A DNA stretch of 64,000 nt from Nitrospirota bacterium (GTDB lineage Bacteria > Nitrospirota > Thermodesulfovibrionia > Thermodesulfovibrionales > Dissulfurispiraceae): NCBI GenBank assembly GCA_963710375.1, contig CAVPZX010000002.1, forward strand, positions 128,001 to 192,000, given 5' to 3'. The notes under the pieces were generated by a model. The model searched no databases. It was not told the DNA's origin and saw only the letters and a list, made by a program, of their open reading frames with translations. The position numbers and the translations under genes were made by a program. Shown piece after piece: positions 899-20,926 of the stretch (its first letter is position 1; the number at the start of each line of letters is the position of its first letter).

Positions 899-1880
899 TT
901 AGAATATGCTGAATTTAAAATATTTCTTGGGGTTGGCCCTGACGTCTCTGGTCAATTGTTTTAATTCAGACACGGCTTCACTCAGTCCTGTAACGGTTTC
1001 TTTCAGTTGCGCGGCAAGCTCCTTGTCCTTTATAAGCTCCCCGGCAGTACCCTTGCCTGAATCAATCGCTGAGAGCACGGAATCGAGCTTTCGGGATGCG
1101 CTGTCCAGGTTATCGTAAATCTCGGGGTTCTCTACAAGCTTCTTAAGCGTGCCGTTCCCCTCATTCATCGTCCTGCTGAATTTCTCGAGGGAGGACGAGG
1201 CTGCAAGCATATTGTTGTAAACGGACGGGTCCTTAATAAACATTTTCGCGGATCCTTCAGATTCCTTAAACTCCTTTAATATCGCCAGGAGCGTTGTCGA
1301 TGATTTCTTTAAATTGTCATAGAGGGCTGGATCTTGAAACATTTTTGCAACGGTCCCCTGACTCTTCTCGAAATGCTCCAGTATCTTGTTCGACTTTATT
1401 CACAAATTCGGTGACTTTTGCCATAGACTTTGTACTGGCCTCAACCAGGTCTTTCACTTCCAGTTGCGCAGCGCCATTTATGATACTGCCCGGTTTAATT
1501 TGGCCTGCTTCAAATGTGCCGCCTGTCAACTCTATATATTTGTCGCCCAGGAGACCCTGGGTAATTACGTTTGCATATGAATCGTTTCTTATATAAGGCA
1601 AAGCGCTTTTTTGGATCAACATGGTAACCAGAGTGCCGTATTGGGAGTTAAGGCTTATATTCTTCACAAAACCGATTTCTATCCCCGAGACCCAAACCGG
1701 GGCATCCCGTCTGAGTCCCTTGACATCCTTCACTTGCGCCTTGATGACCACTTTGGAAGAAAACCAGTCCTGGATTCCCCCTGCAAAAAAGACCGTTAAA
1801 AGCAATAGAGCCAGGGCAATGCTGATAACCACCCCAACCTTCAGCTTGGACCACATGAGCTGCTTTTTCATATCAAACAT
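899..1880 (-). CDS. mlaD: MlaD/MCE-family lipid transport protein, split by a +1 frameshift near 1389 (probable sequencing error, or pseudogene)
   Basis: N-terminal TM plus MCE domain (VKGLRRDAPVWVSGIEIG...GLLGDKYIEL) in ORF 1317..1880. The helical C-terminus ending NPKKYFKFSIF is in ORF 899..1342. Removing one A from GTCGAACAAG joins them (VDKILEHFEKSQGTVAKMFQDP). Confidence 0.85.
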
Positions 1881-8836: not shown

Positions 8837-10264
8837 ATGTCATTTGACCCGAAAGACTCAATTTACATAATATTGGGCGGAATGACAGGGGCCGCCGTGG
8901 CCAGCCTGTTCATATTAATTATTTATTTTTTTTCCGATTTCCGTAAACAAAAAGCTTACAGAAGCAAAATATTAAAACGCCTCGACACCGCAGATATGAT
9001 GCTGCGGGAAAACATGACCATGGATGCGCTATCGATATATAATGAGCTGTTGCTCAATATGCCGAAGCAGCTCCAGCCGGAACTGTATGCCCATATAAAG
9101 CAGAGCGAAGGGAATTGCTATTACGCTATATCACTTGTGCGAAACAAACCGGAAAACCTGATCAAGGCAATCCAGTCATACGAAGAGGCGTTGCGCCATG
9201 ACAGTTACCAAAAAAAACCCGGTGTGTATCTTTCTATTCAGGCCCAGCTCGGCGATGCATACCTGCAAATATCCGAATACCTGAATAAAGAAGATTTTCT
9301 GGCCAAGGCGATATACTCATTCAACGAAGTGCTCAGGCTATATACTCCTGATACCGACCCGGTCAATTACGCATTAATGCAGTACAAACTTGGGTCGTCT
9401 TACAAGTCCCTTGCGGGATCCCAAAAGAAAGAAGGCATTATGCTCCATGCGATCAACGCATTCAATGAGTCGCTGAGAATTTACACCGTCGAGACATATC
9501 CCATCAATTATGCGGAGACACAATATAACCTGGGCGATCTTTTTCTTATGGCTGCAGAAGTCGTTAACCAGGAAGACAATCTCATCAAGGCCCTCGATGC
9601 ATTCTCCAATGCCCTCAGGATTTACACCTTTGGAAGATACAATGTTAATTTTGCCGCGGCCCAAAAAAAGATGGGCAATGCCTATTCTTTACTCACCCTG
9701 ACACGCCGCGAAGAAGAGGTCTTTATCAACGCTATCAACGCCTTTTATCAGGCGCTGAAAGTATACAGCATTGAGGAATATCCCCAGGAATACGTGGGGA
9801 TACAAAACAGCATCGGGACTATCTACCGGGAACTTTCTACGCTGTCCGCCCAAGGTGACAACCTGCGTAAAGCGGTCGCTGCATTCGATGAGGCCCTTAA
9901 AGCATGCTCTTTTGAGACAAACCCTGCCGAATATGCTGCCGTGCAGCACAATATGGGAAATGCCTGTCTTATGCTCTCTGAAATCGATGGCAGCGAGGCT
10001 ATTGTCGAAAAATGCATACACTCCTACCAGGAAACCCTCAAGGTGAAAACAATCAACTATAACCCTGTCGACTTCGCCGCTATACAGCACCGCCTAGGAG
10101 ATGCTTACAGAAACATCTCAAAATATACGAAAAAAGAGGAAAACCTGGACAGGGCAGCCGCGGCTTATAAAGAAGCGCTGAAGGTCTATAATGCCGAGAA
10201 CTATCCTGTTGAACACAGGGAGGTATATTTATCGCTGGAGAAAATCAGAAGGACCGTATCTTAG
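8837..10264 (+). CDS. Membrane-anchored tetratricopeptide-repeat protein
   Basis: N-terminal TM helix followed by repeated PxxYAxxQxxLG...AIxxFxEALxxY units. Confidence 0.8.
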   Translation: MSFDPKDSIYIILGGMTGAAVASLFILIIYFFSDFRKQKAYRSKILKRLDTADMMLRENMTMDALSIYNELLLNMPKQLQPELYAHIKQSEGNCYYAISLVRNKPENLIKAIQSYEEALRHDSYQKKPGVYLSIQAQLGDAYLQISEYLNKEDFLAKAIYSFNEVLRLYTPDTDPVNYALMQYKLGSSYKSLAGSQKKEGIMLHAINAFNESLRIYTVETYPINYAETQYNLGDLFLMAAEVVNQEDNLIKALDAFSNALRIYTFGRYNVNFAAAQKKMGNAYSLLTLTRREEEVFINAINAFYQALKVYSIEEYPQEYVGIQNSIGTIYRELSTLSAQGDNLRKAVAAFDEALKACSFETNPAEYAAVQHNMGNACLMLSEIDGSEAIVEKCIHSYQETLKVKTINYNPVDFAAIQHRLGDAYRNISKYTKKEENLDRAAAAYKEALKVYNAENYPVEHREVYLSLEKIRRTVS

Positions 10265-10512
10265 CACTCAGGACTCGCCGGCCCTTCCTCTCCTTTGATC
10301 ACTTTTTCAGCCAGCGCCTTGTCGGCCTGCGGCACCAGAATCCTAATCTCTCCGATCTTGCCTATGTTGACAGGAAAAGGGCTCACTTTCGAAGACCGCA
10401 ACACAACAGGTATCCCGCCGCTTTCCAGAAGGTCCTTGACCATCTCAGCCTCAACGGGATCGCACGTAACCAGCACATCCACCCACTCTTCACTTCCATC
10501 AGATCCCAGCAT
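10261..10512 (-). CDS. DUF2007-like small protein (start uncertain; nearest in-frame ATG overlaps the msrP 3' end)
   Basis: EEWVDVLVTCDPVEAEMVKDLLESGGIPV...GEIRILVP pattern. Confidence 0.7.
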   Translation of the reverse strand: MLGSDGSEEWVDVLVTCDPVEAEMVKDLLESGGIPVVLRSSKVSPFPVNIGKIGEIRILVPQADKALAEKVIKGEEGPASPEC

Positions 10513-11275
10513 ACCACTCGTATCCTTGGTCTTCCCAGTACCCTCCCTTTCCGCCGGCGATCTTAGAGAAGCTTTCGACGATTTCCAGGCGGATAACATA
10601 CTTCGCGTGTTTGTATCCGAGCTGGCGCTCGACCCGTAAGCGTATCGGCGCACCATTGGCGAGAGGAAGATCCGTTCCGTTCAATTCGTACGCCAGAATG
10701 GTTTGCGGGTGGAATGCGTCCTCCATATCTATGCTCTCGTAGTAGGGAGAACTGCCGTCGTCATTCATCGGGTCGGCACAGTGAAAGACGACATAGCGGG
10801 CATTCGGTTTGAGTTGGACCTTTTCGAGCAGGGGCCCTAAACGCGCTCCCTTCCACTTGCCTATGGCGCTCCATCCCTCGACGCAATCGTGCCTCGTTAT
10901 CTGGGTGCGGCTAGGGAGCGCCCGTATCTCGGCGAGAGAAAACATGCCGGGCTTCTCGACCAAACCGTCAACGGCCAATCGATAATCTGCGAACCCGTTC
11001 TTCGCCATCGCCAAGAATGCCGGGTTGCTGGGCACTGAAGTCCCGTTGCTCCTGAACTTATGAGAAGGGTCCGTCTCAGAGAATTCCCGGACCATAGCCT
11101 TTCTTGGCAGAATCAGTCGCTGAGCGCCCAGGGTCATTTTCTCGCCAAAGCCCAGAATGTTGGGAAACCATGTCGTATCCGAAAGCTTCTGACAGCCGGC
11201 CAAGGCCATGGCTCCGACACCGGCAATCATCCGCGCCAGGAGTCCCCTGCGGTCGATCCCTGTTAAGTTACTCAT
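10499..11275 (-). CDS. Tat-exported molybdopterin oxidoreductase, MsrP/YedY-like (sulfite oxidase fold)
   Basis: DRRGLL Tat motif, TRHDCVEGWS Mo-ligand Cys, NGAPIRLRVERQLGYKHAKY, GYWEDQGYEWYAGI. Confidence 0.85.
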   Translation of the reverse strand: MSNLTGIDRRGLLARMIAGVGAMALAGCQKLSDTTWFPNILGFGEKMTLGAQRLILPRKAMVREFSETDPSHKFRSNGTSVPSNPAFLAMAKNGFADYRLAVDGLVEKPGMFSLAEIRALPSRTQITRHDCVEGWSAIGKWKGARLGPLLEKVQLKPNARYVVFHCADPMNDDGSSPYYESIDMEDAFHPQTILAYELNGTDLPLANGAPIRLRVERQLGYKHAKYVIRLEIVESFSKIAGGKGGYWEDQGYEWYAGI

Positions 11276-12110
11276 TATCTGACTCCGGCGGAACTTTGAA
11301 ATACCCTGTAATCATAGATCGAACGTTATTCCAGAATCCATTGACAACGACTTCGAAGACATGGACGAACACGAATGCCACCAATGCCCAGGCGATGAGG
11401 AAATGGAGCGTTCTCATGGACTGCCTGCCTCCGAACAGGCTGACCAAACCGGGAAAGAGCGCGTCCAGAGCTGGTGACATGCCAAGCCCCATCAGGATCA
11501 TCGCGGGGGCCATCAGGAAGATCACGGAAAGATAGGCCATCTTCTGCAGTACATTGTAGCGAGTGGCTTCCTCCCCTTTCGGTCGCCGTAACAGTAGGTG
11601 ATCGACGACCGACCTGCCGATTGAATGCAACTCTTGACGGGTGGGCAATAGGCTCCGGGCGACATGTCGGATGAGCAAGGAGTAAGTCACAAAGGTGAAG
11701 CCATTTACCACCAGTAGCCAGGCAAAGAAAAAATGCCAACGCCGGGCCATGGCAAGCCATTGGACACTTGGTATTGTTATCCACGTCGGAAATCCCAGGT
11801 CTATCATGTCTCCATCCAGGTCCTTGGAAGCCCCTAGGAATCCGGTGGTATCCATTTTATAACCGAAGAGGCTTGTAGTCCCTATAAGTTTACCTTCATT
11901 ATCTTCCGCGCTGCGTATTTCAAGCAGTGGCGGGTTTTTCCCGTATGATGATTCTCCCCAGTAAAGTATCGAGTGTGCATTGAAGATGTTGAGGCCGCTC
12001 ATCAGAAGTACGACTAAGGCCGTGACATTGATCCAGTGCATAAGCCGCACAGGCAGAGGATGGCGGTACTGCATTTTTTTCCCGGGTAAGGTATCGTTCA
12101 GGTCTGCCAC
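11268..12110 (-). CDS. Di-heme cytochrome b membrane partner (Ni/Fe-hydrogenase cyt b-like; MsrQ-equivalent)
   Basis: VRLMHWIN, RRWHFFFAW, YNVLQK, RTLHF, FVHV His ligands; overlaps the oxidoreductase start. Confidence 0.85.
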   Translation of the reverse strand: MADLNDTLPGKKMQYRHPLPVRLMHWINVTALVVLLMSGLNIFNAHSILYWGESSYGKNPPLLEIRSAEDNEGKLIGTTSLFGYKMDTTGFLGASKDLDGDMIDLGFPTWITIPSVQWLAMARRWHFFFAWLLVVNGFTFVTYSLLIRHVARSLLPTRQELHSIGRSVVDHLLLRRPKGEEATRYNVLQKMAYLSVIFLMAPAMILMGLGMSPALDALFPGLVSLFGGRQSMRTLHFLIAWALVAFVFVHVFEVVVNGFWNNVRSMITGYFKVPPESDNE

Positions 12111-12275
12111 TTCAGTTTACCCCTTGCCAATTACCTTGGAATCTATCACACTCTGGAGACTTATTAGTTTCATATTTCAAAGTTTATCATTCTGATGACA
12201 TTATTACAAATTTTGGCAAATTTGGAAACGATCTTTCCAGTAAAGCCATCTGGGCTTTTTCTATAGTTCATCAGT

Positions 12276-12761
12276 CTATCTTTTAAGCATGTTGGGCCAG
12301 TTCTCATCCGCCTTTTTGATATTTCCGGGAATGTCTTTGCTCCACTTGTCTCTTATTTTCTTACTGAGATTGAGGTAAAGCTTGCCGGCGACAATATTCC
12401 ACTCCTCGGGGTCAATATCAGCTGTGGTTCCGACACTTACTGCAAACGCGCAATAACCACCATATTTTGGCGCATACTTCTCAGGGTTCCTGATGAACAG
12501 ATCCCTGTTTTCGGCGCTTGCGAAATGCCATTTTGCACCCATCCAGATATATTCGAATTCTCCGTTTCCACTTACAGGTTTTCCATCAATAAAATAGGCC
12601 ACAGGATCATAACCCTTAACTGCCACCCCGTCAGAAGTTTTGTTGATAGGTTCTATTGCGGATGCGGGGCCTCCCGACTTTCCTGTGCAACCCGAAAAGA
12701 CGATACCGCCGGCTATGAGTCCGGTCAGCAAGAGCGCCAGTAATAAGGTTGTGTATTTCAT
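12276..12761 (-). CDS. YHS-domain lipoprotein (Cys form)
   Basis: Lipobox-like FSGC, GYDPVAYF, YAPKYGGYCAFAV, GKLYLN. Confidence 0.85.
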   Translation of the reverse strand: MKYTTLLLALLLTGLIAGGIVFSGCTGKSGGPASAIEPINKTSDGVAVKGYDPVAYFIDGKPVSGNGEFEYIWMGAKWHFASAENRDLFIRNPEKYAPKYGGYCAFAVSVGTTADIDPEEWNIVAGKLYLNLSKKIRDKWSKDIPGNIKKADENWPNMLKR

Positions 12762-13063
12762 TTAACTGTTCCTGTGTAGGTACCGGCCTTCTTCAAGACC
12801 GTTTCCATTTCGCCAATCGTAATTACTGCCGGATCATAATAAACAGTGTTTATCTCTTTCAAGTAGCGAAAGCCTTTTTCAACTCTCTTCACTCCCTTCA
12901 GCCCTGCCAGGGCCTCCTTGCCGACATCGAATCATTTAACATTAAAGATCACCTTCGATGTTCCAGCATCTTGTGCGAAAGAAACACCATAACATAAAAA
13001 GACAAACAACATCAAAACAAAAAGAGTCAAAGACTGAGTGCTTCGGTTCTTCATATAATTCAT
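12758..13063 (-). CDS. Putative exported selenoprotein, 101 aa with Sec44 (MsrA-core/HMA-like fold); absent from the ORF track
   Basis: Hand translation MNYMKNRSTQSLTLFVLMLFVFLCYGVSFAQDAGTSKVIFNVK-UGA-FDVGKEALAGLKGVKRVEKGFRYLKEINTVYYDPAVITIGEMETVLKKAGTYTGTVK. Has an AAGGGA RBS, a signal peptide and a hairpin downstream of the UGA. The stop overlaps the next ATG (ATGA). Confidence 0.8.
12900..12914 (-). promoter_or_regulatory. Candidate SECIS hairpin
   Basis: GGCCCU-GGC-AGGGCU; loop begins 23 nt after the in-frame UGA at 12934-12932. Confidence 0.6.
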
Positions 13064-13155
13064 AGTTTTCACATCCCTTTATTGTTCACTTTGTTAACTC
13101 TGTCGTCTCTGCCCTTGAAGTAAGAAATCTTGTCTTTGACAAGACTCCGGTTAGC

Positions 13156-13204
13156 AAAAAAACCTATCAAGAGGGCACGTAATTTAGAGTGCCCTCTTGA
13201 TAGG
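13156..13204 (-). terminator. Intrinsic terminator after the Met-rich gene
   Basis: Perfect 16-bp stem CCTATCAAGAGGGCAC/GTGCCCTCTTGATAGG followed by 7 U on the minus strand. Confidence 0.85.
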
Positions 13205-13261
13205 CTGACTATCTAATATTTATTCGTCTACTTAATGTCTTTCTTTTCCATCACCTAACTT

Positions 13262-13588
13262 TTAGTTGTGAGGAAAAGGAAACAATAAGTCACGCATCTG
13301 CTCGCCCGTGTCCATCATCATCTTGCCGCAGTCCATCATTACCTTGGCCTGATTGCACATCATCTCGCCTTCTCGTTTCATTCCCTTTTCCATCATCATT
13401 TTGCCATTGTCCATCATCATCTGGCCCTTTTCCATCATCATCTGGCCATTGTCCATCATCATCTGGCCCTTTTCCATCATCACTTTTTTGTCCATCGTGT
13501 CGGCGGCTGAAACTAATCCGGTGCCTGCGGAAAGCATAAGACAGAAAAGAAATGCTATTGCTGCTATAGAACATACTATTTTCTTCAT
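13262..13588 (-). CDS. Secreted methionine-rich heptad-repeat protein (MrpX-like oxidant scavenger)
   Basis: GGAGAG RBS, signal peptide MKKIV...VSA, repeats MMMEKGQ/MMMDNGQ; about 24 Met in about 80 mature residues. Confidence 0.8.
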   Translation of the reverse strand: MKKIVCSIAAIAFLFCLMLSAGTGLVSAADTMDKKVMMEKGQMMMDNGQMMMEKGQMMMDNGKMMMEKGMKREGEMMCNQAKVMMDCGKMMMDTGEQMRDLLFPFPHN

Positions 13589-13871
13589 GTTGAACTCTCC
13601 TTTTGATTTTTTACGTTGATCAGATTCCCAAAATAATATTACCCTTATGGTCACGCTCCGCACTCTTATTCTGCTTCTTAATGTCCCCCATGTACACTTC
13701 CTTTAATACATAGTCGTTTATCACCTCGCTTTTCAACTTGTTACTGCATGAACTGTAAGCAGCCTAGCCAAACATCAAAAGCTAGTATGATTCCACTTTA
13801 GCTTGCTGCCTATGATGAATTTCACAACTGCGCCGTTTATTGCACGAAGCCCCACGTAACCAATTAGTTAT

Positions 13872-13926
13872 AGGTTAGCAGAAAAAAAATCACGATATCA
13901 TCACGAAAAAATAACAATTTTATCAC
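13872..13926 (-). promoter_or_regulatory. OmpR/PhoB-type 11-bp-period binding boxes plus extended -10 upstream of the Met-rich gene
   Basis: GTGA-N7-GTTA-N7-GTGA-N7-GTGA, then N9-TGcTAACCT on the minus strand. Confidence 0.75.
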
Positions 13927-13985
13927 GGACGAAAAATTGAAAACCGAAGGCTGACTTCTCAGAATTCAACTATTGGAGGTCATGA

Positions 13986-15464
13986 CTAAACCGTATAAAC
14001 CGGCAGGGTGAACGTGAAGGTCGTACCGGCGTTGACCACACTATCGACCTTAATATCACTTCCGTGGAGTTCCAGGATTCTCCTGGTGATGACCAGCCCA
14101 AGCCCCAAACCACCGGTGCCGCCTGCGTAGCTGCGGCCCATTCGATAACTGCGGTCGAATAAATACGGGAAATCCTCCGGCCGGATACCCGCGCCGGTAT
14201 CGGAAACTTGCACCTTTACTCGTCCGCTTTCGAAACCGGCGCTGACGGTAATCGAGCCGTTTTCCGGAGTGTACCTGGCGGCATTTTCGATGAGGTTTTC
14301 GAACACTCTCTCGATGAGTCCAATATCGGCGAACGCCAGCGGAAGGTGTTCAGGGAAGTTCTGTTGAAGCTTGATCTTTTTCTTCTCAGCAGCAAGCTGG
14401 AACTTCTGCATTATGTCCTGGACAAGTTCCGCCAGAGAAAAAGATTCGAGCCTGACCTGGACATCCGGCGAATCAAGTTTAGCCAGTTCAAAGAGTGCGG
14501 TAACCAACTTTCCTAATTGATTGGAACGCTTAATGGCAATTGTGAGAAAGTCCCGTTGCTCCTGCGGCGTCAACTTTCCTTCCTTCAAGAGCAAGGTCTC
14601 AAGGTATCCATGGAGAGACGTCAGAGGCGTTCGGAGGTCGTGTGTGATATTGGCTACTAATTCGCGCCGAAGCGCATCTGCTTGTCTGAGATTCTTTATC
14701 AGCTGAATAATGCGCTCAGCCATCTGAGAGAAGATCGATCCGAGACGGTCAATTTCATCCCCGGAACTGCCCTTAAAGAAAGGCAAAAAATCGGGATTGT
14801 CTGAAAAATCGCTCTGTCTGAAAGTTTCCATGTCAGCGGTAAGACGTTGGAGCCTACGTGTGATCAAGAAGAAGAGGAGAAGTCCAGTTAGTAAGGCAAA
14901 TAACAGGCTCCATGTCACAGCCCATATGCTTAACCGGATGATGTAACTGCCTTGGAGCATCTCTGCGACCGTTTCAAATTCCTCGCTGCCCAGAATGATG
15001 TAAAGATAACCTTGTATTTGATTTTTAACAAAGATTGGCGCCGCGGAGAACACCTTTTTACTTTTTAGGTTACGCGGGTCGTCACCCAGGATGGGAAACG
15101 CATCCGTCTTGTTCAGGAAACTTTTCAGGGGCACCATTGATACCTCCTGCCTTTTTACTTTTCCAAGAGGTGCGGAGAATGCCAGGATTGTGCCGTTTGG
15201 ATTGAGAAGATAGACCTCGATGTTTGGATTAACGATCATCAGCATATGGAAAATATCCTCAAGGGCTTTTTTATTGACCCGACCGTCCTTCATCAAGCTT
15301 GTCTCCGAAGTCAAGTTCTGAGCCAGAGTACGATTGAGCTTCTGGTCCACCTCCTGAAAATACAGCCGGGTGGTGTAGAGAGTGAACAGCATATAAAGGA
15401 TTCCGATCAGACAGAGCAACCCCAGCAGGACAACAGCCAGCTTGCAATAAAGGGTCTTGAACAT
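13986..15464 (-). CDS. Sensor histidine kinase (2 TM, HAMP, HisKA, HATPase)
   Basis: THDLRTPL H-box, NLIENA, DTGAGI, GLGLGL. Confidence 0.92.
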   Translation of the reverse strand: MFKTLYCKLAVVLLGLLCLIGILYMLFTLYTTRLYFQEVDQKLNRTLAQNLTSETSLMKDGRVNKKALEDIFHMLMIVNPNIEVYLLNPNGTILAFSAPLGKVKRQEVSMVPLKSFLNKTDAFPILGDDPRNLKSKKVFSAAPIFVKNQIQGYLYIILGSEEFETVAEMLQGSYIIRLSIWAVTWSLLFALLTGLLLFFLITRRLQRLTADMETFRQSDFSDNPDFLPFFKGSSGDEIDRLGSIFSQMAERIIQLIKNLRQADALRRELVANITHDLRTPLTSLHGYLETLLLKEGKLTPQEQRDFLTIAIKRSNQLGKLVTALFELAKLDSPDVQVRLESFSLAELVQDIMQKFQLAAEKKKIKLQQNFPEHLPLAFADIGLIERVFENLIENAARYTPENGSITVSAGFESGRVKVQVSDTGAGIRPEDFPYLFDRSYRMGRSYAGGTGGLGLGLVITRRILELHGSDIKVDSVVNAGTTFTFTLPVYTV

Positions 15465-15468
15465 AAGA

Positions 15469-16182
15469 CTATTCCTTTTGGAAATCGGAGAACTTGTAAC
15501 CGATCCCCCAGACAGTCAAAATATAACGGGGCTTGGCAGGATCTTTTTCGATTTTTGCCCTTAATCGGTTGATGTGAGAATTCACGGTATGTTCGTAGCC
15601 TTCGTAGCCGTACACCCATACCTGTTTCAACAGTTCCATGCGTGTATATACCCTCCCGGGATGACTGACAAAGTGGAGCAGGAGGTCGAACTCTTTGGCT
15701 GTCAATAGCACCGGATTTCCCGAGAGCGTAACCTTCCGCTTTTCAGCATCTATAATAAGAGCACCTGTCTGAATCAGTTTCTGCGATTCCTGAGATGCCT
15801 CTGACTTAAGCGCCTCCACACGACGGAACAGCGCCTTGACCCGTGCCAGAAATTCGTGAATACTAAAGGGTTTGGTCAGGTAATCGTCTGCTCCGATCTC
15901 CAGGCCGAGTACACGGTCAACTTCAGAAGATCTGGACGACAGTATCAACATGGGGATATAGACAGATCCTGCCCTCACTCTCCGGCAGATCTCCAGCCCA
16001 TCTACCGCCGGGAGCGTAAGATCCAAAATAATCAGATCATAGGGTTCCGTGAGTGCATGGTCGAGACCGACGTCACCATCATAGGCAAGAGTTACTTCAT
16101 ATCCCATATCTTTCAGATGGAGCTCAACAAGATGGGCTATATCATTATCATCTTCAATTACAAGGATTCTGCGATGCTGCAT
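15469..16182 (-). CDS. OmpR-family response regulator (start probably ATG 16182 or 16203)
   Basis: ILVIEDD, LIILD, GADDYLTKPF, wHTH TVNSHINRLRAKIE...TVWGIGYKF. Confidence 0.92.
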   Translation of the reverse strand: MQHRRILVIEDDNDIAHLVELHLKDMGYEVTLAYDGDVGLDHALTEPYDLIILDLTLPAVDGLEICRRVRAGSVYIPMLILSSRSSEVDRVLGLEIGADDYLTKPFSIHEFLARVKALFRRVEALKSEASQESQKLIQTGALIIDAEKRKVTLSGNPVLLTAKEFDLLLHFVSHPGRVYTRMELLKQVWVYGYEGYEHTVNSHINRLRAKIEKDPAKPRYILTVWGIGYKFSDFQKE

Positions 16183-16264
16183 TTTTGCTCCATGAGCATT
16201 CATGCTGTCGTGATTTATATAAGCATAACATAATGGCATATCCCTAAATTGACATGAAACATCC

Positions 16265-16319
16265 GTGACCAAAAAGTTATCTTTCCGTGATAATTTTGTG
16301 ACTATCGAAATGTTATACT
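16265..16319 (+). promoter_or_regulatory. OmpR/PhoB-type 11-bp-period binding boxes plus extended -10 upstream of msrA
   Basis: GTGA(16265) GTTA(16276) GTGA(16287) GTGA(16298), then N9-TGtTATACT. Confidence 0.75.
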
Positions 16320-16328
16320 ACATAACAA

Positions 16329-17132
16329 TTGGTTAATGTCAAGTCCATTATTGCTTTTATAGTTCTTTGGGGGGTTGCAATAAGCGCTGCGACTCTTGTC
16401 TCTCTTGGAGGGGGTAAAAGTATGTCCATGCAACATAACGATACAGAGGCCTTTGTAGCTCAGCCACCCACAGGTCCATCTCTTACCGGTTCATTCGAAA
16501 CGGCTACCTTCGCCCTTGGCTGATTCTGGGGACCGGACTCCCAGTTTGGGAGTGTACCGGGGGTTGTCAGAACCCGAGTAGGATATGCCGGTGGAACTAC
16601 TAAAAATCCCACTTATCACAACTTGGGAGATCACTCCGAGGCGGTTCAAATTGATTTTAATCCCGCTCTCGTCTCATATAGGGAGCTGTTGGATATCTTT
16701 TGGAAGAGCCACAGCGCGACAAGCGGTTCCGGGTCTCGCCAATATAGGGCAGCAGTGTTTTATCACAACGAAAGACAGAGGAAACTTGCCGAAGAATCCC
16801 GAGATCATCTCGGAACGGAAACAGGACGCAGGATTGTGACAGCGATAGAGACCTATTCCGGGTTCCATTTGGCCGAGGACTACCACCAGAAGCACAGTCT
16901 GCGATTATTCCCCGAACTGATGGAGGAATTGAAAGCGCTTTATCCGGACATGAATAATTTTCTAAATTCTGTTGCCGTCACACGAATCAACGGTTACCTT
17001 GGAGGATACGGCACGTGCGACGCTCTCCAAATGGAAGTAGAGAGTTTCGGGCTTTCACCAAAGGCAAGAGAAAGATTGATTTCCGTTGTATGTGGCCGCA
17101 AAGCTTCAGTTACGTGTCCGATCCGGCAATAA
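16329..17132 (+). CDS. msrA: Selenocysteine-containing peptide methionine sulfoxide reductase A
   Basis: ORFs 16329..16523 and 16623..17132 are one frame joined by UGA 16521-16523 in the catalytic motif: ATFALG-U-FWG...GYAGG...PTY...DHSEAV...QYRAAVF...AEDYHQKH. Confidence 0.92.
16524..16562 (+). promoter_or_regulatory. SECIS element of msrA
   Basis: ACUCCCA-GUU-UGGGAGU 7-bp stem with a G-first loop 20 nt after the UGA; lower stem UUCUGG/CCGGGG. Confidence 0.8.
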
Positions 17133-17341
17133 ATCCGTTTCCACTTATTATTTTTTATTCCTTTCCTTCATCAAATCCCTTTGGCTAATCGAATTTTAAC
17201 GGGTTTCGCGGTAATCGTTTGATGATATAGGAGGCGCGCATTGACATGTGGTAAAATGATGCAGGGCAGGTCAGCTGTTGTAGTCAGTATTTTTGTTTAT
17301 AAGTAAGGATGTCAATCGTAATATCGGAGAGGAGATGGCAT

Positions 17342-17527
17342 ATGGCTGATCAAGACGATTTATTGGATATTCGTAAAATAATAGAGGAAGGGCATACGCG
17401 TCCGTGCGCTTGTCGGCAAATTTTAGGGGACGGGACCTGTGAATGCAAAATGGGCGTGGTCAGCCCTGTTAAACTCGCACGTGATATCACCGCTATGGAA
17501 ATATCCTATGGCAAAGAAGAATCATAA
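17342..17527 (+). CDS. Small hypothetical protein with CxC...CxC motif
   Basis: GAGGAG RBS before ATG 17342; HTRPCAC...GTCEC. Confidence 0.5.
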   Translation: MADQDDLLDIRKIIEEGHTRPCACRQILGDGTCECKMGVVSPVKLARDITAMEISYGKEES

Positions 17528-17847
17528 TTGGTTAGGACAGATTAATGATACTGAGTTCATCTTCTAAACCAGAGCAGCACATTGTAAAGAATATCTTTTT
17601 GCGCACCGCTACTTGACCTGTCGGACAAAGAGTCAACTACGGCATTTATAGCCGCTAAGTGTGATTTTAAAAATGATCTTGAGAGTATCAATTTCTGGTT
17701 GAAGGAAAGATATCAAAATTATTCCTTACCCCGCAAGTCGAGAAGCATTAAATCACGAGACTGCCGAAGATTTCCGATGTAATATTGTTAAAACTGATAT
17801 TGGTGATGACCATTGATAAAACTATTTCTCCGTGTTAGCATTGGGCT

Positions 17848-20800
17848 ATGAAAATGTTGCCGGCGATTTTTCAACTATCTAGCTACTCGTTCAATTTATG
17901 GGCAATTCCCGTTGCCTGTGTCGTGCTCATACTCGCAGCGCTTGACCTGAAACGTTTTTATCAAGAGCGTTTTGAGCGGACCAGCTTGACACTCGACCTA
18001 CTGACATTCTTTATCTTGATATGGCAGGTCTCAGTTTTCTTTATGTACAGACTCAACCAATGCAGACGTTGCTCTTTGGTGGGCAAAAGCAGTCTATCTC
18101 GGCGTTCCTTTTATTCCCTCAGCTCTTTATTTTTTTGTCATCACCGCATTGAACCTCTATGAAAAGCATAAACGGCTAAATGCCCTAATCTGGGTATTAT
18201 CCTTGTTTTCTTCCATTCTCATGGTAGGTACGGACTTGGTCTATAGTAAGGTAAAGCATTTTCCGTGGGGGTATTACCCTCAGTTCACTTTGTGGAGCAT
18301 AATGTACCTGATCCCTTTCGGGATTGTGTTAGGAATTAGCTACCACGTACTTCTGCTGGCCTATAAGCAAGAAATACACAGCCTCAAGCGGCGATTTCGC
18401 ATCAGGTCATTTCTTCTTGCCCTTGGTATTGGAGGATCGGCGGTCGTTGATTATCTCGCAAACTTTGATATTGCAGTATATCCCGCCGGCTACATTGCGG
18501 TATTGGTCAGTACAATCATACTCAATAGGACCGTAGCAAAATACAAGCTTATCGATATCACCCCTAAGTTTGCTGCGCAGGGTATTCTCGATACAATGGA
18601 TGAAGCCCTGATTGCAATTGATGCGGAGGGTATTATCAGGTTGATCAATCGTGCAGCCACGGTGATGTTAGGGCGGCCGGAAGAGGACCTTCTCGGAAGG
18701 CCGTTTACAATGATTTTCGGCGAAGGTAACCAATCGGTACTTGACGGTAGCGCCTCGTCCGGTCCCGTACGCTGTTACGAATTATCCTATATGCATCCTG
18801 ACGACGTTCCGCAAATCCTCAGCATATCTGCATCGTCGATGAAAGACGACAGCGGGAGCGTTATAGCCACTGTTTGTACAGTCAGGGACATTACTGACAG
18901 CAAACGGACGGAAGAGGCGCTCAGAAAGGCGAAGACTGCTGCGGAAGCTGCGAATCTGGCAAAGGGCGAGTTTCTGGCAAACATGAGCCACGAAATCCGC
19001 ACCCCAATGAACGGCATCATTGGGATGACCGGTTTGCTTCTAGACACAGGGCTTTCTGAGGAGCAGAGGAACTATGCCGAGATGCTGCGCTCAAGCGGCG
19101 AGTTGTTGCTGGGCCTGATCAACGATATCCTTGACTTCTCCAAGATAGAGGCAGGCAAACTGGAGATAGAGACAATAGAGTTTGATCTGAGAAACACGCT
19201 TGAAGAGACTGCTGAGTTTCTGGCCTTGAGGGCCCACGAAAAGGGTCTTGAGTTAATATGCCGGATAGACCCTGGCGTCCACACATTTCTAATAGGCGAC
19301 CCTGGCCGGCTTCGCCAGATATTGGTCAACCTGATAGGGAATGCCATCAAGTTCACCTCAGTGGGCGAGGTGGTTATCGAAGCAGTGACGGAATATGAGA
19401 GAGACGGTCAGATTGCGGTGCGTTTCAATATAAGGGATACGGGCATTGGGATACCAGAAGACAAACTGCCTTTATTGTTTGACAGTTTTCAGCAGGTTGA
19501 TGCCTCTACATCGAGGAAGTTTGGAGGCAGCGGCCTAGGGTTGGCAATATCTAGGCGTCTGGTTGAGCTAATGAACGGCAGGATAGGGGTTGAAAGCATA
19601 GAAGGGAAGGGTTCCAACTTCTGGTTTACAGCAGTGTTCGATAAGGGGAGTCAGCCGGACAGGGGAGAAATGCCTCCATTTGTCGATATCAGCGGGGTGA
19701 GGATACTGTCAGTAGACGACAATGCGGTGAACCGCATTGTAATTGCAGAGCAGATGAAGTCGTGGGGAGTGCGCAATGCCGAGGCCGGGGGAGCTTTAAA
19801 GGCGATGGAGATGCTCCATGCTGCTCAAGCTGAAGGGGACCCTTTTCGGGTTGTAGTTACTGATATGCAGATGCCTGGGATGGACGGCGAAGCCCTTGCC
19901 AGGGCCATCAAGGCAGACCCAGCTTTGAGGGACACTTTGCTGATTATGCTGACATCCAGCGGGATGCGGGGAGATGCAAAGCGGCTTGCGAGCCTTGGAT
20001 TTTCTGCATATCTGACCAAGCCTGTAAGGATGTTCCAACTGCACAACTGCATAGCCGCAGTCCTTGGTGGGAGCAGTCTGCATGAAAAGGCCCAGGAAGC
20101 CGCTATTATTACCGGTCACCGGCTTCGTGAGGAATCCAGGCAGAATGCGCGCATTCTACTGGTGGAGGATAACAAAGTGAATAAACTGGTGGCAGAGGGC
20201 ATTCTGGGGAAATTGGGGTTCATTGCTGACACTGCTGACAATGGCCAGCAGGCGATCAATATAATGGAAGCCGCCCCTTACGACATAGTCTTCATGGATG
20301 TGCAGATGCCTGTTATGGATGGGTATCAGGCTACGAAAGCTATCCGGGATGGCAAGACAAAGGCAGCGAATCCCAATGTTCCTATTATTGCAATGACAGC
20401 CCATGCCATGAAGAGTGACAGGGAGAAATGCCTGCAATGGGGTATGGACGATTATATATCTAAGCCAATCTCGCTGCAGGAAGTGGCTAAGGCGCTTGAA
20501 AAATGGCTGCCACAGGCGCATGTCAAGTTGCCGGCAGCAACTGATAGGGCCTCTGATAAGACAGCAGCAGTAGAGGCATTACAGGTCTTTGACTATGCAG
20601 GGCTTATGGAACGCATGATGGATGACATGGATCTGGCCAGAAGAGTTATCACTGCATTTATGAAGAGAATCCCCGGGATGCTTGATAAGCTAAGGGAGCA
20701 GATAGATCGGGGCGATGCAGAACTTGCCGGAAGACAAACCCACAAGATCAAGGGGGCAGCGTCCAACACAGGATGTATGGCAATGAGCGCCGTAGCAGCT

Positions 20801-20926
20801 GATATGCAGAAGGCCGGAGAGCGAGGGGAAATGGAGACACTTATTGCACTTATGCCTAAACTTGAAGGCCAGTTTGAGTTACTGAAGGCTAAAATCAAAG
20901 ACTTGGGGGTCTTAGAAGTCATATAA
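17848..20926 (+). CDS. Hybrid sensor kinase (7TM N-terminus, PAS, HisKA, HATPase, two REC, HPt) with a +1 frameshift near 18051
   Basis: [21 protein letters not shown], two receiver domains, HKIKGAA HPt. Deleting one A joins ORF 17848 to ORF 18149 ([16 protein letters not shown]...). Confidence 0.88.

Follow-up and report, generated by a model that had tools for sequence, protein, structure and literature searches.

Four-box direct-repeat arrays as the probable operators of an OrhK/OrhR-type two-component pair in a Nitrospirota bacterium

We analyzed a 64,000-nucleotide stretch of a Nitrospirota genome (family Dissulfurispiraceae; assembly GCA_963710375.1, contig CAVPZX010000002.1, positions 128,001 to 192,000; hereafter the window, in whose numbering positions are given), in which a response regulator of the OmpR/PhoB family and a sensor histidine kinase lie between two outward-facing promoters, each carrying the same four-box array of direct repeats. 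With a probability of roughly 0.8, the two arrays are the operators of the enclosed regulator, a homologue of Escherichia coli OrhR, at which two tandem dimers replace the −35 element, and both operons are activated when an oxidant is sensed, likely via an invariant methionine of the kinase. The four-box pattern travels with the regulator-kinase pair across several phyla and is therefore likely the regulator's binding site. An earlier note on this DNA, made from the sequence by eye, had described the two promoters and proposed that they are the operators of the enclosed regulator and define its regulon.

Two outward promoters share a four-box array
The arrays and their −10 elements are located as follows.

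16265..16301, plus strand: operator array A, GTGA-N7-GTTA-N7-GTGA-N7-GTGA, upstream of msrA, read from the sequence, 50.8 bits; boxes GTGA 16265-68, GTTA 16276-79, GTGA 16287-90 and GTGA 16298-301
16311..16319, plus strand: −10 element of array A, TG (16311-12) and TATACT (16314-19), 12 nt past box 4; transcription start predicted near 16326
13890..13926, minus strand: operator array B, the same four boxes, upstream of a Met-rich gene, read from the sequence, 48.6 bits; boxes GTGA 13926-23, GTTA 13915-12, GTGA 13904-01 and GTGA 13893-90
13872..13880, minus strand: −10 element of array B, TG and TAACCT (13877-72), 12 nt past box 4; transcription start predicted near 13865

Both strings were found where the earlier note had placed them (16265-16319 and 13926-13872), and the common architecture that it described is correct: the 11-bp period, GTTA as box 2 and the 12-nt gap to the −10 hexamer are shared by two promoters whose sequences differ, with 39 of 58 positions alike. 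The boxes also stand in place of a −35 element, as proposed, and a consensus promoter scan returned no −35/−10 pair that uses either hexamer. The extended −10 element held in part: a TG precedes both hexamers in the window, but in relatives only the G ahead of the −10 is conserved. The gap from box 4 to TAnnnT is 11 nt in 38 of 46 related sites, against 12 in both window promoters. Direct repeats recurring every 10-11 bp, a constant distance to the −10 element and the lack of a canonical −35 place both arrays among pho-box-type promoters.

The pattern is highly specific. Four GT(G/T)A boxes at an 11-bp period occur exactly twice on both strands of the 3.19-Mb genome, and these two matches are arrays A and B. 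A weight matrix built from 46 sites of related loci, from which the window was excluded and in which close relatives were included, scored the arrays at 50.8 and 48.6 bits, compared with 20.4 bits for the next site in the genome and a maximum of 13.0 bits in the reversed genome.

The enclosed pair is related to OrhK/OrhR
Two genes are encoded between the arrays.

15469..16203, minus strand: response regulator of the OmpR/PhoB family, OrhR homologue (Pfam PF00072 and PF00486; 53% identity to OrhR)
13986..15464, minus strand: sensor histidine kinase of 492 residues, OrhK homologue, with His275 and a single PAS/PDC-type periplasmic domain containing Met76

The regulator scores below the PhoB family cut-off and starts at 16203 or 16185 (Asp55 is numbered from 16185; relatives begin MNAQGAKM); a TTG at 16272 was rejected as its start, falling inside array A. 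The sensor domain of the kinase is predicted to adopt a single PAS/PDC fold, according to a structural model (predicted local distance difference test score of 80) and its fold matches, and no solved structure was matched by sequence. Met76 of the periplasmic domain is present in 84 of 84 kinases and is the sole invariant aliphatic or methionine column of the protein, none of 140 leucine, isoleucine or valine columns being invariant. This conservation makes Met76 a candidate redox switch.

The closest characterized relative is the C3564/C3565 pair of uropathogenic E. coli CFT073, OrhK/OrhR. The window kinase is 37% identical to OrhK over 495 columns that include the periplasmic sensor domain, and the family kinase profile scores OrhK at 168 bits; the two regulators share the phospho-acceptor Asp55 and differ by one residue in the recognition helix. 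A nucleotide search with the pair against E. coli genomes returned plasmid copies only, and CFT073 was taken by accession. As reported in the accessible part of the study of Gu et al., OrhR activates, as a response to peroxide, the genes for a cytochrome b, a molybdoenzyme and a Met-rich peptide, and binds a 260-nt c3566 promoter probe, as seen by electrophoretic mobility shift (PMC8550376). An operon of the same composition adjoins the window pair. In the window, unlike the OrhK/OrhR locus, the pair is flanked by two outward promoters, each with four boxes on one strand, the predicted targets additionally comprise a selenocysteine-type methionine sulfoxide reductase A (MsrA), a small selenocysteine/cysteine (Sec/Cys) protein and a YHS-domain protein, and the annotated stretch 10261-20926 showed no toxin gene.

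The array accompanies the pair across phyla
The proposal that the arrays are operators of the enclosed regulator draws support from de novo motif recovery, held-out loci, co-occurrence, distant copies and the E. coli homologue (PMC8550376, as far as its accessible text goes). For this comparison, 83 related loci were gathered in a common orientation. Motif discovery in the flanks of 36 Nitrospirota and Desulfobacterota loci, with the window left out, recovered in 32 of the 36 cGTGA-N7-gTtA-N7-GTGA-N7-GTGA with a −10-like TAt..T behind it; its log-likelihood of 875 compares with 109-123 for three shuffles, which were run with fewer starts. In all seven further loci of the Desulfobacterota group outside the training set, the best site lies at most 400 bp from the pair and scores 12.5-49.5 bits.

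Within a single sample of 301 Nitrospirota genomes, 46 were found to carry the kinase. The exact degenerate pattern occurs in 28 of these 46 and in three of the other 255 genomes, one of the three being a simple tandem repeat; the reversed pattern occurs in none of the 301. When the unchanged matrix was applied to 39 proteobacterial and Bacteroidota loci, its best hit fell in the flanks of the pair in 22, compared with 2.6 expected by length. Overall, the array adjoins the pair in three phyla and in one Bacteroidota locus.

Array copies were also found far from any pair, about 680 kb (genome G145) and 180 kb (genome G189) from the nearest one on the same contig. Both stand ahead of the same Cys/Sec protein, behind which msrAB follows in G189; with the same target genes behind it at these distant places, the motif is a marker of targets and not merely of the pair's neighborhood. 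An alignment of 11 hand-picked promoters from three phyla shows no variation in box 3, in portions of the other three boxes or in the final T of the −10 element (11/11), and across distant genomes the boxes are conserved while the spacers have diverged. Among close relatives, near-identical copies of array B follow the kinase gene in L006, L007 and L009, and both array types already occur together in L007 and L008.

Proposed mechanism of activation
In the mechanism that we propose, the kinase would sense an oxidant, likely through Met76, and the phosphorylated regulator would occupy each array with two dimers arranged head to tail, which would stand in for the −35 element, as expected from knowledge of the family. 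In PhoP complexes, tandem dimers on two boxes displace the contact of sigma region 4 with the −35 element, as described in the accessible part of PMC11825685. By analogy, the downstream dimer on each array may cover the −35 region and contact RNA polymerase. The position of the arrays and the precedent of OrhR suggest that both outward operons would be activated. The signal would be a methionine-oxidizing stress, reactive chlorine or peroxide, as the targets and their conservation suggest. As outputs, the Met-rich peptide would soak up oxidant, the predicted selenocysteine-type MsrA and an MsrPQ-like pair would repair methionine sulfoxide, and periplasmic repair could reset the kinase.

Predicted target genes and selenocysteine
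The genes behind the two arrays are listed below.

16422..17132, plus strand: MsrA, predicted selenoprotein, with TGA codon 34 at the catalytic Cys position (TIGR00401 above cut-off; weak PF20939)
13262..13588, minus strand: Met-rich protein of 108 residues with a signal-peptide-like N-terminus, read from the sequence; no Pfam or NCBIfam family
13167..13200, minus strand: terminator-like perfect 12-bp hairpin with a T-run after it, separating the Met-rich gene from the remaining operon (z = −6.7)
12758..13063, minus strand: small secreted-type Sec/Cys protein of 101 residues, with in-frame TGA codon 44; no named family in Pfam or NCBIfam
12276..12761, minus strand: YHS-domain protein (NF041384 above cut-off; PF04945)
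11268..12110, minus strand: cytochrome b561-type membrane subunit, C3566-like (PF01292; 23% identity to the pVR50B homologue), with a putative MsrQ role
10499..11275, minus strand: molybdopterin oxidoreductase, C3567/MsrP-like (PF00174; below the MsrP cut-off; 36% identity to the pVR50B homologue)

The Met-rich protein would be a sacrificial sink resembling MrpX or C3568. The in-frame TGA codons at Cys positions of msrA and of the small left-operon gene had been overlooked in the earlier note; because of its TGA, the 101-residue gene was missing from the list of open reading frames. At the corresponding position, 4 of 37 MsrA homologue rows have TGA and 33 have TGC or TGT; for the small protein, TGA and TGC/TGT each occur in 7 of 14 rows. 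The small protein has weak, below-cut-off matches to two (seleno)protein families. MsrA proteins with selenocysteine and YHS selenoproteins are listed families, according to the accessible part of PMC9312934. The genome encodes tRNA-Sec, selB and selD, the last with an in-frame TGA of its own. Hairpins after the two UGA codons fold no better than shuffles (z of −0.96 and +0.68), a comparison made with no selenocysteine insertion sequence model applied. Selenocysteine decoding in this strain is likely.

Among the 83 loci, genes for Msr, MsrP-like or Met-rich proteins or chlorite dismutase (Cld) occur in 58, a count made with a script that underestimates Met-rich genes. Msr genes are the commonest neighbors (45/83). 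In six Nitrospirota genomes (L045, L046/L067, L047, L051/L075, L068 and L069), Cld is the first gene after the kinase gene and a four-box array; this arrangement was seen in 6 of the 14 examined genomes of one Nitrospirota family, in which 18 carry the kinase. That Cld is closest to PDB 3NN1, which we take to be the Nitrospira defluvii enzyme, and no Cld match was found in the genome of the window. OmpR and kinase subfamilies, without names in the accessible part of PMC9751292, are associated there with Cld.

Comparison with other known systems
The HprS/HprR pair of E. coli K-12 (YedVW, HypVW) is likewise an OmpR-family system over a periplasmic Msr system; HprS is reported to need periplasmic Met72 and Met153, and sensing through periplasmic methionines has been proposed in the part of that study that is accessible (10.1101/2021.09.09.459708). 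The window pair was rejected as HprRS on the basis of its sensor sequence and operator type: the sensor domains gave no BLAST match, HprR is 37% identical to the window regulator with a different recognition helix, and the HprR promoter has a palindrome upstream of hiuH, in contrast to direct repeats. Searches with HprS gave 91 near-identical hits and found it in 1 of 301 genomes, and the two sensors may yet be distant homologues.

Promoters with pho boxes bound by PhoB or PhoP likewise have tandem direct repeats, two boxes with four half-sites over the −35 region, and strict spacing between box and core promoter, as PhoB illustrates (PMC11825685, PMC10294691, accessible parts); they differ from the window in repeat unit, kinase and targets. 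In Azospira suillum, SigF/NrsF, MrpX and YedYZ likewise combine a Met-rich periplasmic sink with a molybdo-reductase, induced by reactive chlorine, and the sink-plus-reductase model adopted above derives from that system. Unlike the window, control there lies with an extracytoplasmic function (ECF) sigma factor and its anti-sigma factor, and no two-component system with a repeat operator is described in the accessible part of the report (PMC4436054). Vogesella TciKR was considered and rejected as unrelated, as far as the accessible part of PMC12826045 describes it.

Literature searches for OrhK/OrhR, c3564-c3566, Msr combined with two-component systems and Nitrospira Cld regulation, whose coverage mostly excludes subscription journals, turned up, among the papers listed, no description of this direct-repeat operator or of a wider family. 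As far as these searches reach, the direct-repeat operator, the cross-phylum spread, the invariant methionine and the Cld link are new, whereas activating a methionine-repair regulon from pho-box-type promoters belongs to a familiar class of mechanism.

Weighing the alternatives
Several points weigh against the arrays being operators of an oxidant-sensing pair that controls both operons. Operator function in this organism is argued from sequence comparison. The exact pattern is missing from 18 of the 46 kinase-bearing genomes and, because the genomes are related, the counts overstate independence. The suggestion in the earlier note that the arrays define the regulon holds for the two promoters here, but a third, weaker site exists in the same genome (G000:C2:719474, minus strand; 20.4 bits; three boxes and GATAAT at 11 nt; L211), ahead of a small gene pair that ends in an HVO_A0114-type helix-turn-helix gene and has no redox link. 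The hairpin at 13167..13200, to which none of 200 shuffles was equally stable and which is a putative terminator, may uncouple the distal left-operon genes from array B. The selA gene was not found in the nine-contig assembly with two profiles (TIGR00474 and PF03841); it is present in 35 of 40 relatives, synteny with two relatives offered no conserved context in which to place it, and its absence would reflect an assembly gap or a recent loss. Further such points concern the signal and the geometry of the site, and are taken up with the alternatives on which they bear.

The same regulator and sites could serve a response to envelope or metal stress more broadly, in which Msr genes would be one output among several. 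Consistent with this, none of the Msr, MsrP-like, Met-rich or Cld genes is seen within the sequence fetched for 25 of the 83 loci, the array is followed by spondin-domain genes in nine loci (L074, L108, L111, L114, L115, L118, L134, L139 and L163), and beta-propeller, YtkA-like and radical-SAM genes also occur after arrays. One of the weak matches of the small Sec/Cys protein is to a metal-binding selenoprotein family. A very weak HHalign match of the sensor to HprS, obtained with a four-sequence HprS alignment (probability 2.3%, E 0.02; all 30 column shuffles scored lower), pairs Met76 with HprS Met73, the less important residue. The prevalence of Msr neighbors, the Cld genes placed first in six genomes, the peroxide response of OrhKR (PMC8550376, accessible part) and the fact that the invariant residue is a methionine argue the other way, and we consider a broader signal unlikely.

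The second alternative concerns how the regulator binds. In PMC8550376, whose accessible text contains the mobility shift on the 260-nt probe and no footprint, Gu et al. proposed the inverted repeat TCACA-N15-TGTGA as the OrhR site; head-to-head binding would make the direct-repeat appearance secondary. In a kinase tree (FastTree, 83/84 rows), OrhK belongs to a clade of 19 rows (support 100) whose box 1 is ATCAC, the reverse complement of GTGAT, with TTAA near the center; the window falls among loci with four GTGA boxes. The OrhK clade thus conserves an inverted half-site at box 1, the HprR promoter provides a true palindrome, and the Nitrospirota matrix gives the site of CFT073 only 1.5 bits. 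However, the c3566 promoter of CFT073 is the best matrix site in its 8.5-kb locus and reads ATCA-N7-TTTA-N7-GTGA-N7-ATGA with CATAAT 11 nt later, box for box in the 11-bp register of the family arrays. Sites of the OrhK clade hold that register, with a −10 element 11-12 nt past box 4, in 15 of 18 cases. The inverted repeat is absent from the window arrays and the Nitrospirota consensus, which have four same-strand boxes and no such half-site, yet the recognition helix is nearly identical in both groups. The inverted repeat is confined to the OrhK clade and is real there, where the half-site may serve the divergent regulator promoter, but the family-wide feature is the direct-repeat register. 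Head-to-head binding is therefore very improbable, and on these alignments the direct-repeat array likely corrects the site proposed for OrhR.

The arrays might instead belong to a different transcription factor: the genome encodes at least six further full-length OmpR-like regulators, and GTNA repeats at an 11-bp period are generic for the OmpR family. This reading appears slightly less credible still, given that the array tracks the kinase family (28/46 against 3/255) and lies beside the pair in all the phyla named above. Finally, a local promoter duplication devoid of operator function, which a near-palindrome common to both window promoters and missing in relatives could hint at as recent copying, is scarcely tenable against boxes conserved amid diverging spacers in distant genomes and the coexistence of both array types in L007 and L008.

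Further observations on the loci
The near-palindrome just mentioned, of 13-14 bp, covers the predicted start of both promoters (16323-16335, plus strand; 13870-13857, minus strand) and occurs nowhere else in the genome. It was rejected as an operator component, being absent from the three closest relatives (L006, L007 and L008); it may represent a second operator peculiar to this strain, or else a vestige of promoter copying. A TTGACA-16-TAGTAT element at 16342-16315 (minus strand) is a candidate promoter of the regulator-kinase operon and overlaps the msrA −10 element on the opposite strand; its −35 is retained in L006 only, among three relatives compared. Array A would sit just past the start of this promoter, so the regulator could repress itself. 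In L006, the msrA-side array (1400-1432, minus strand) has a 1-bp deletion and an altered third box with the Sec-type msrA still present, and may be decaying.

After msrA, a 72-residue open reading frame with four cysteines (17309-17527, plus strand) was assigned to no family in Pfam or NCBIfam, and the related loci that were searched gave no match to it. A second, cysteine-type msrA (G000:C4:275552-276163) lies roughly 3 kb away from tRNA-Sec; no array in its vicinity exceeds 8 bits. In the spondin-domain loci, these genes are often upstream of the regulator-kinase pair, and L118 apparently has five boxes. A selenobacteriocin-type radical SAM maturase gene (TIGR04082, above cut-off) is downstream of the array at L158:5366-6802, a locus where the kinase gene, matching in two overlapping parts, is probably frameshifted. 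In Burkholderia and other proteobacteria (L019, L116, L122-L126, L130 and L137), a DipZ-type redoxin gene is divergent from the pair, behind an ATCAC-type array, accompanied in most of these loci by msrB and msrA.

Implications for the sensor family
Beyond the window, we put forward tentatively that OrhK/OrhR, hitherto described solely as a system of a uropathogen island, represents a single branch within a family of methionine-redox sensors that spans phyla, in which the invariant periplasmic methionine would be the switch and the four-box GTGA direct repeat the true operator, the E. coli promoter included. The regulon would be one of reactive-chlorine defense, with periplasmic Cld under direct control in some Nitrospirota. 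The analysis gives a precise predicted operator to a family of sensors so far documented in a single E. coli paper, in which the inverted repeat was a guess, and the motif is specific enough to read out the regulon in uncultured bacteria. A single residue, Met76, is named for the sensing of methionine oxidation, and one sensor would connect selenocysteine-containing Msr enzymes, an unnamed Sec/Cys protein and the Cld of Nitrospirota.

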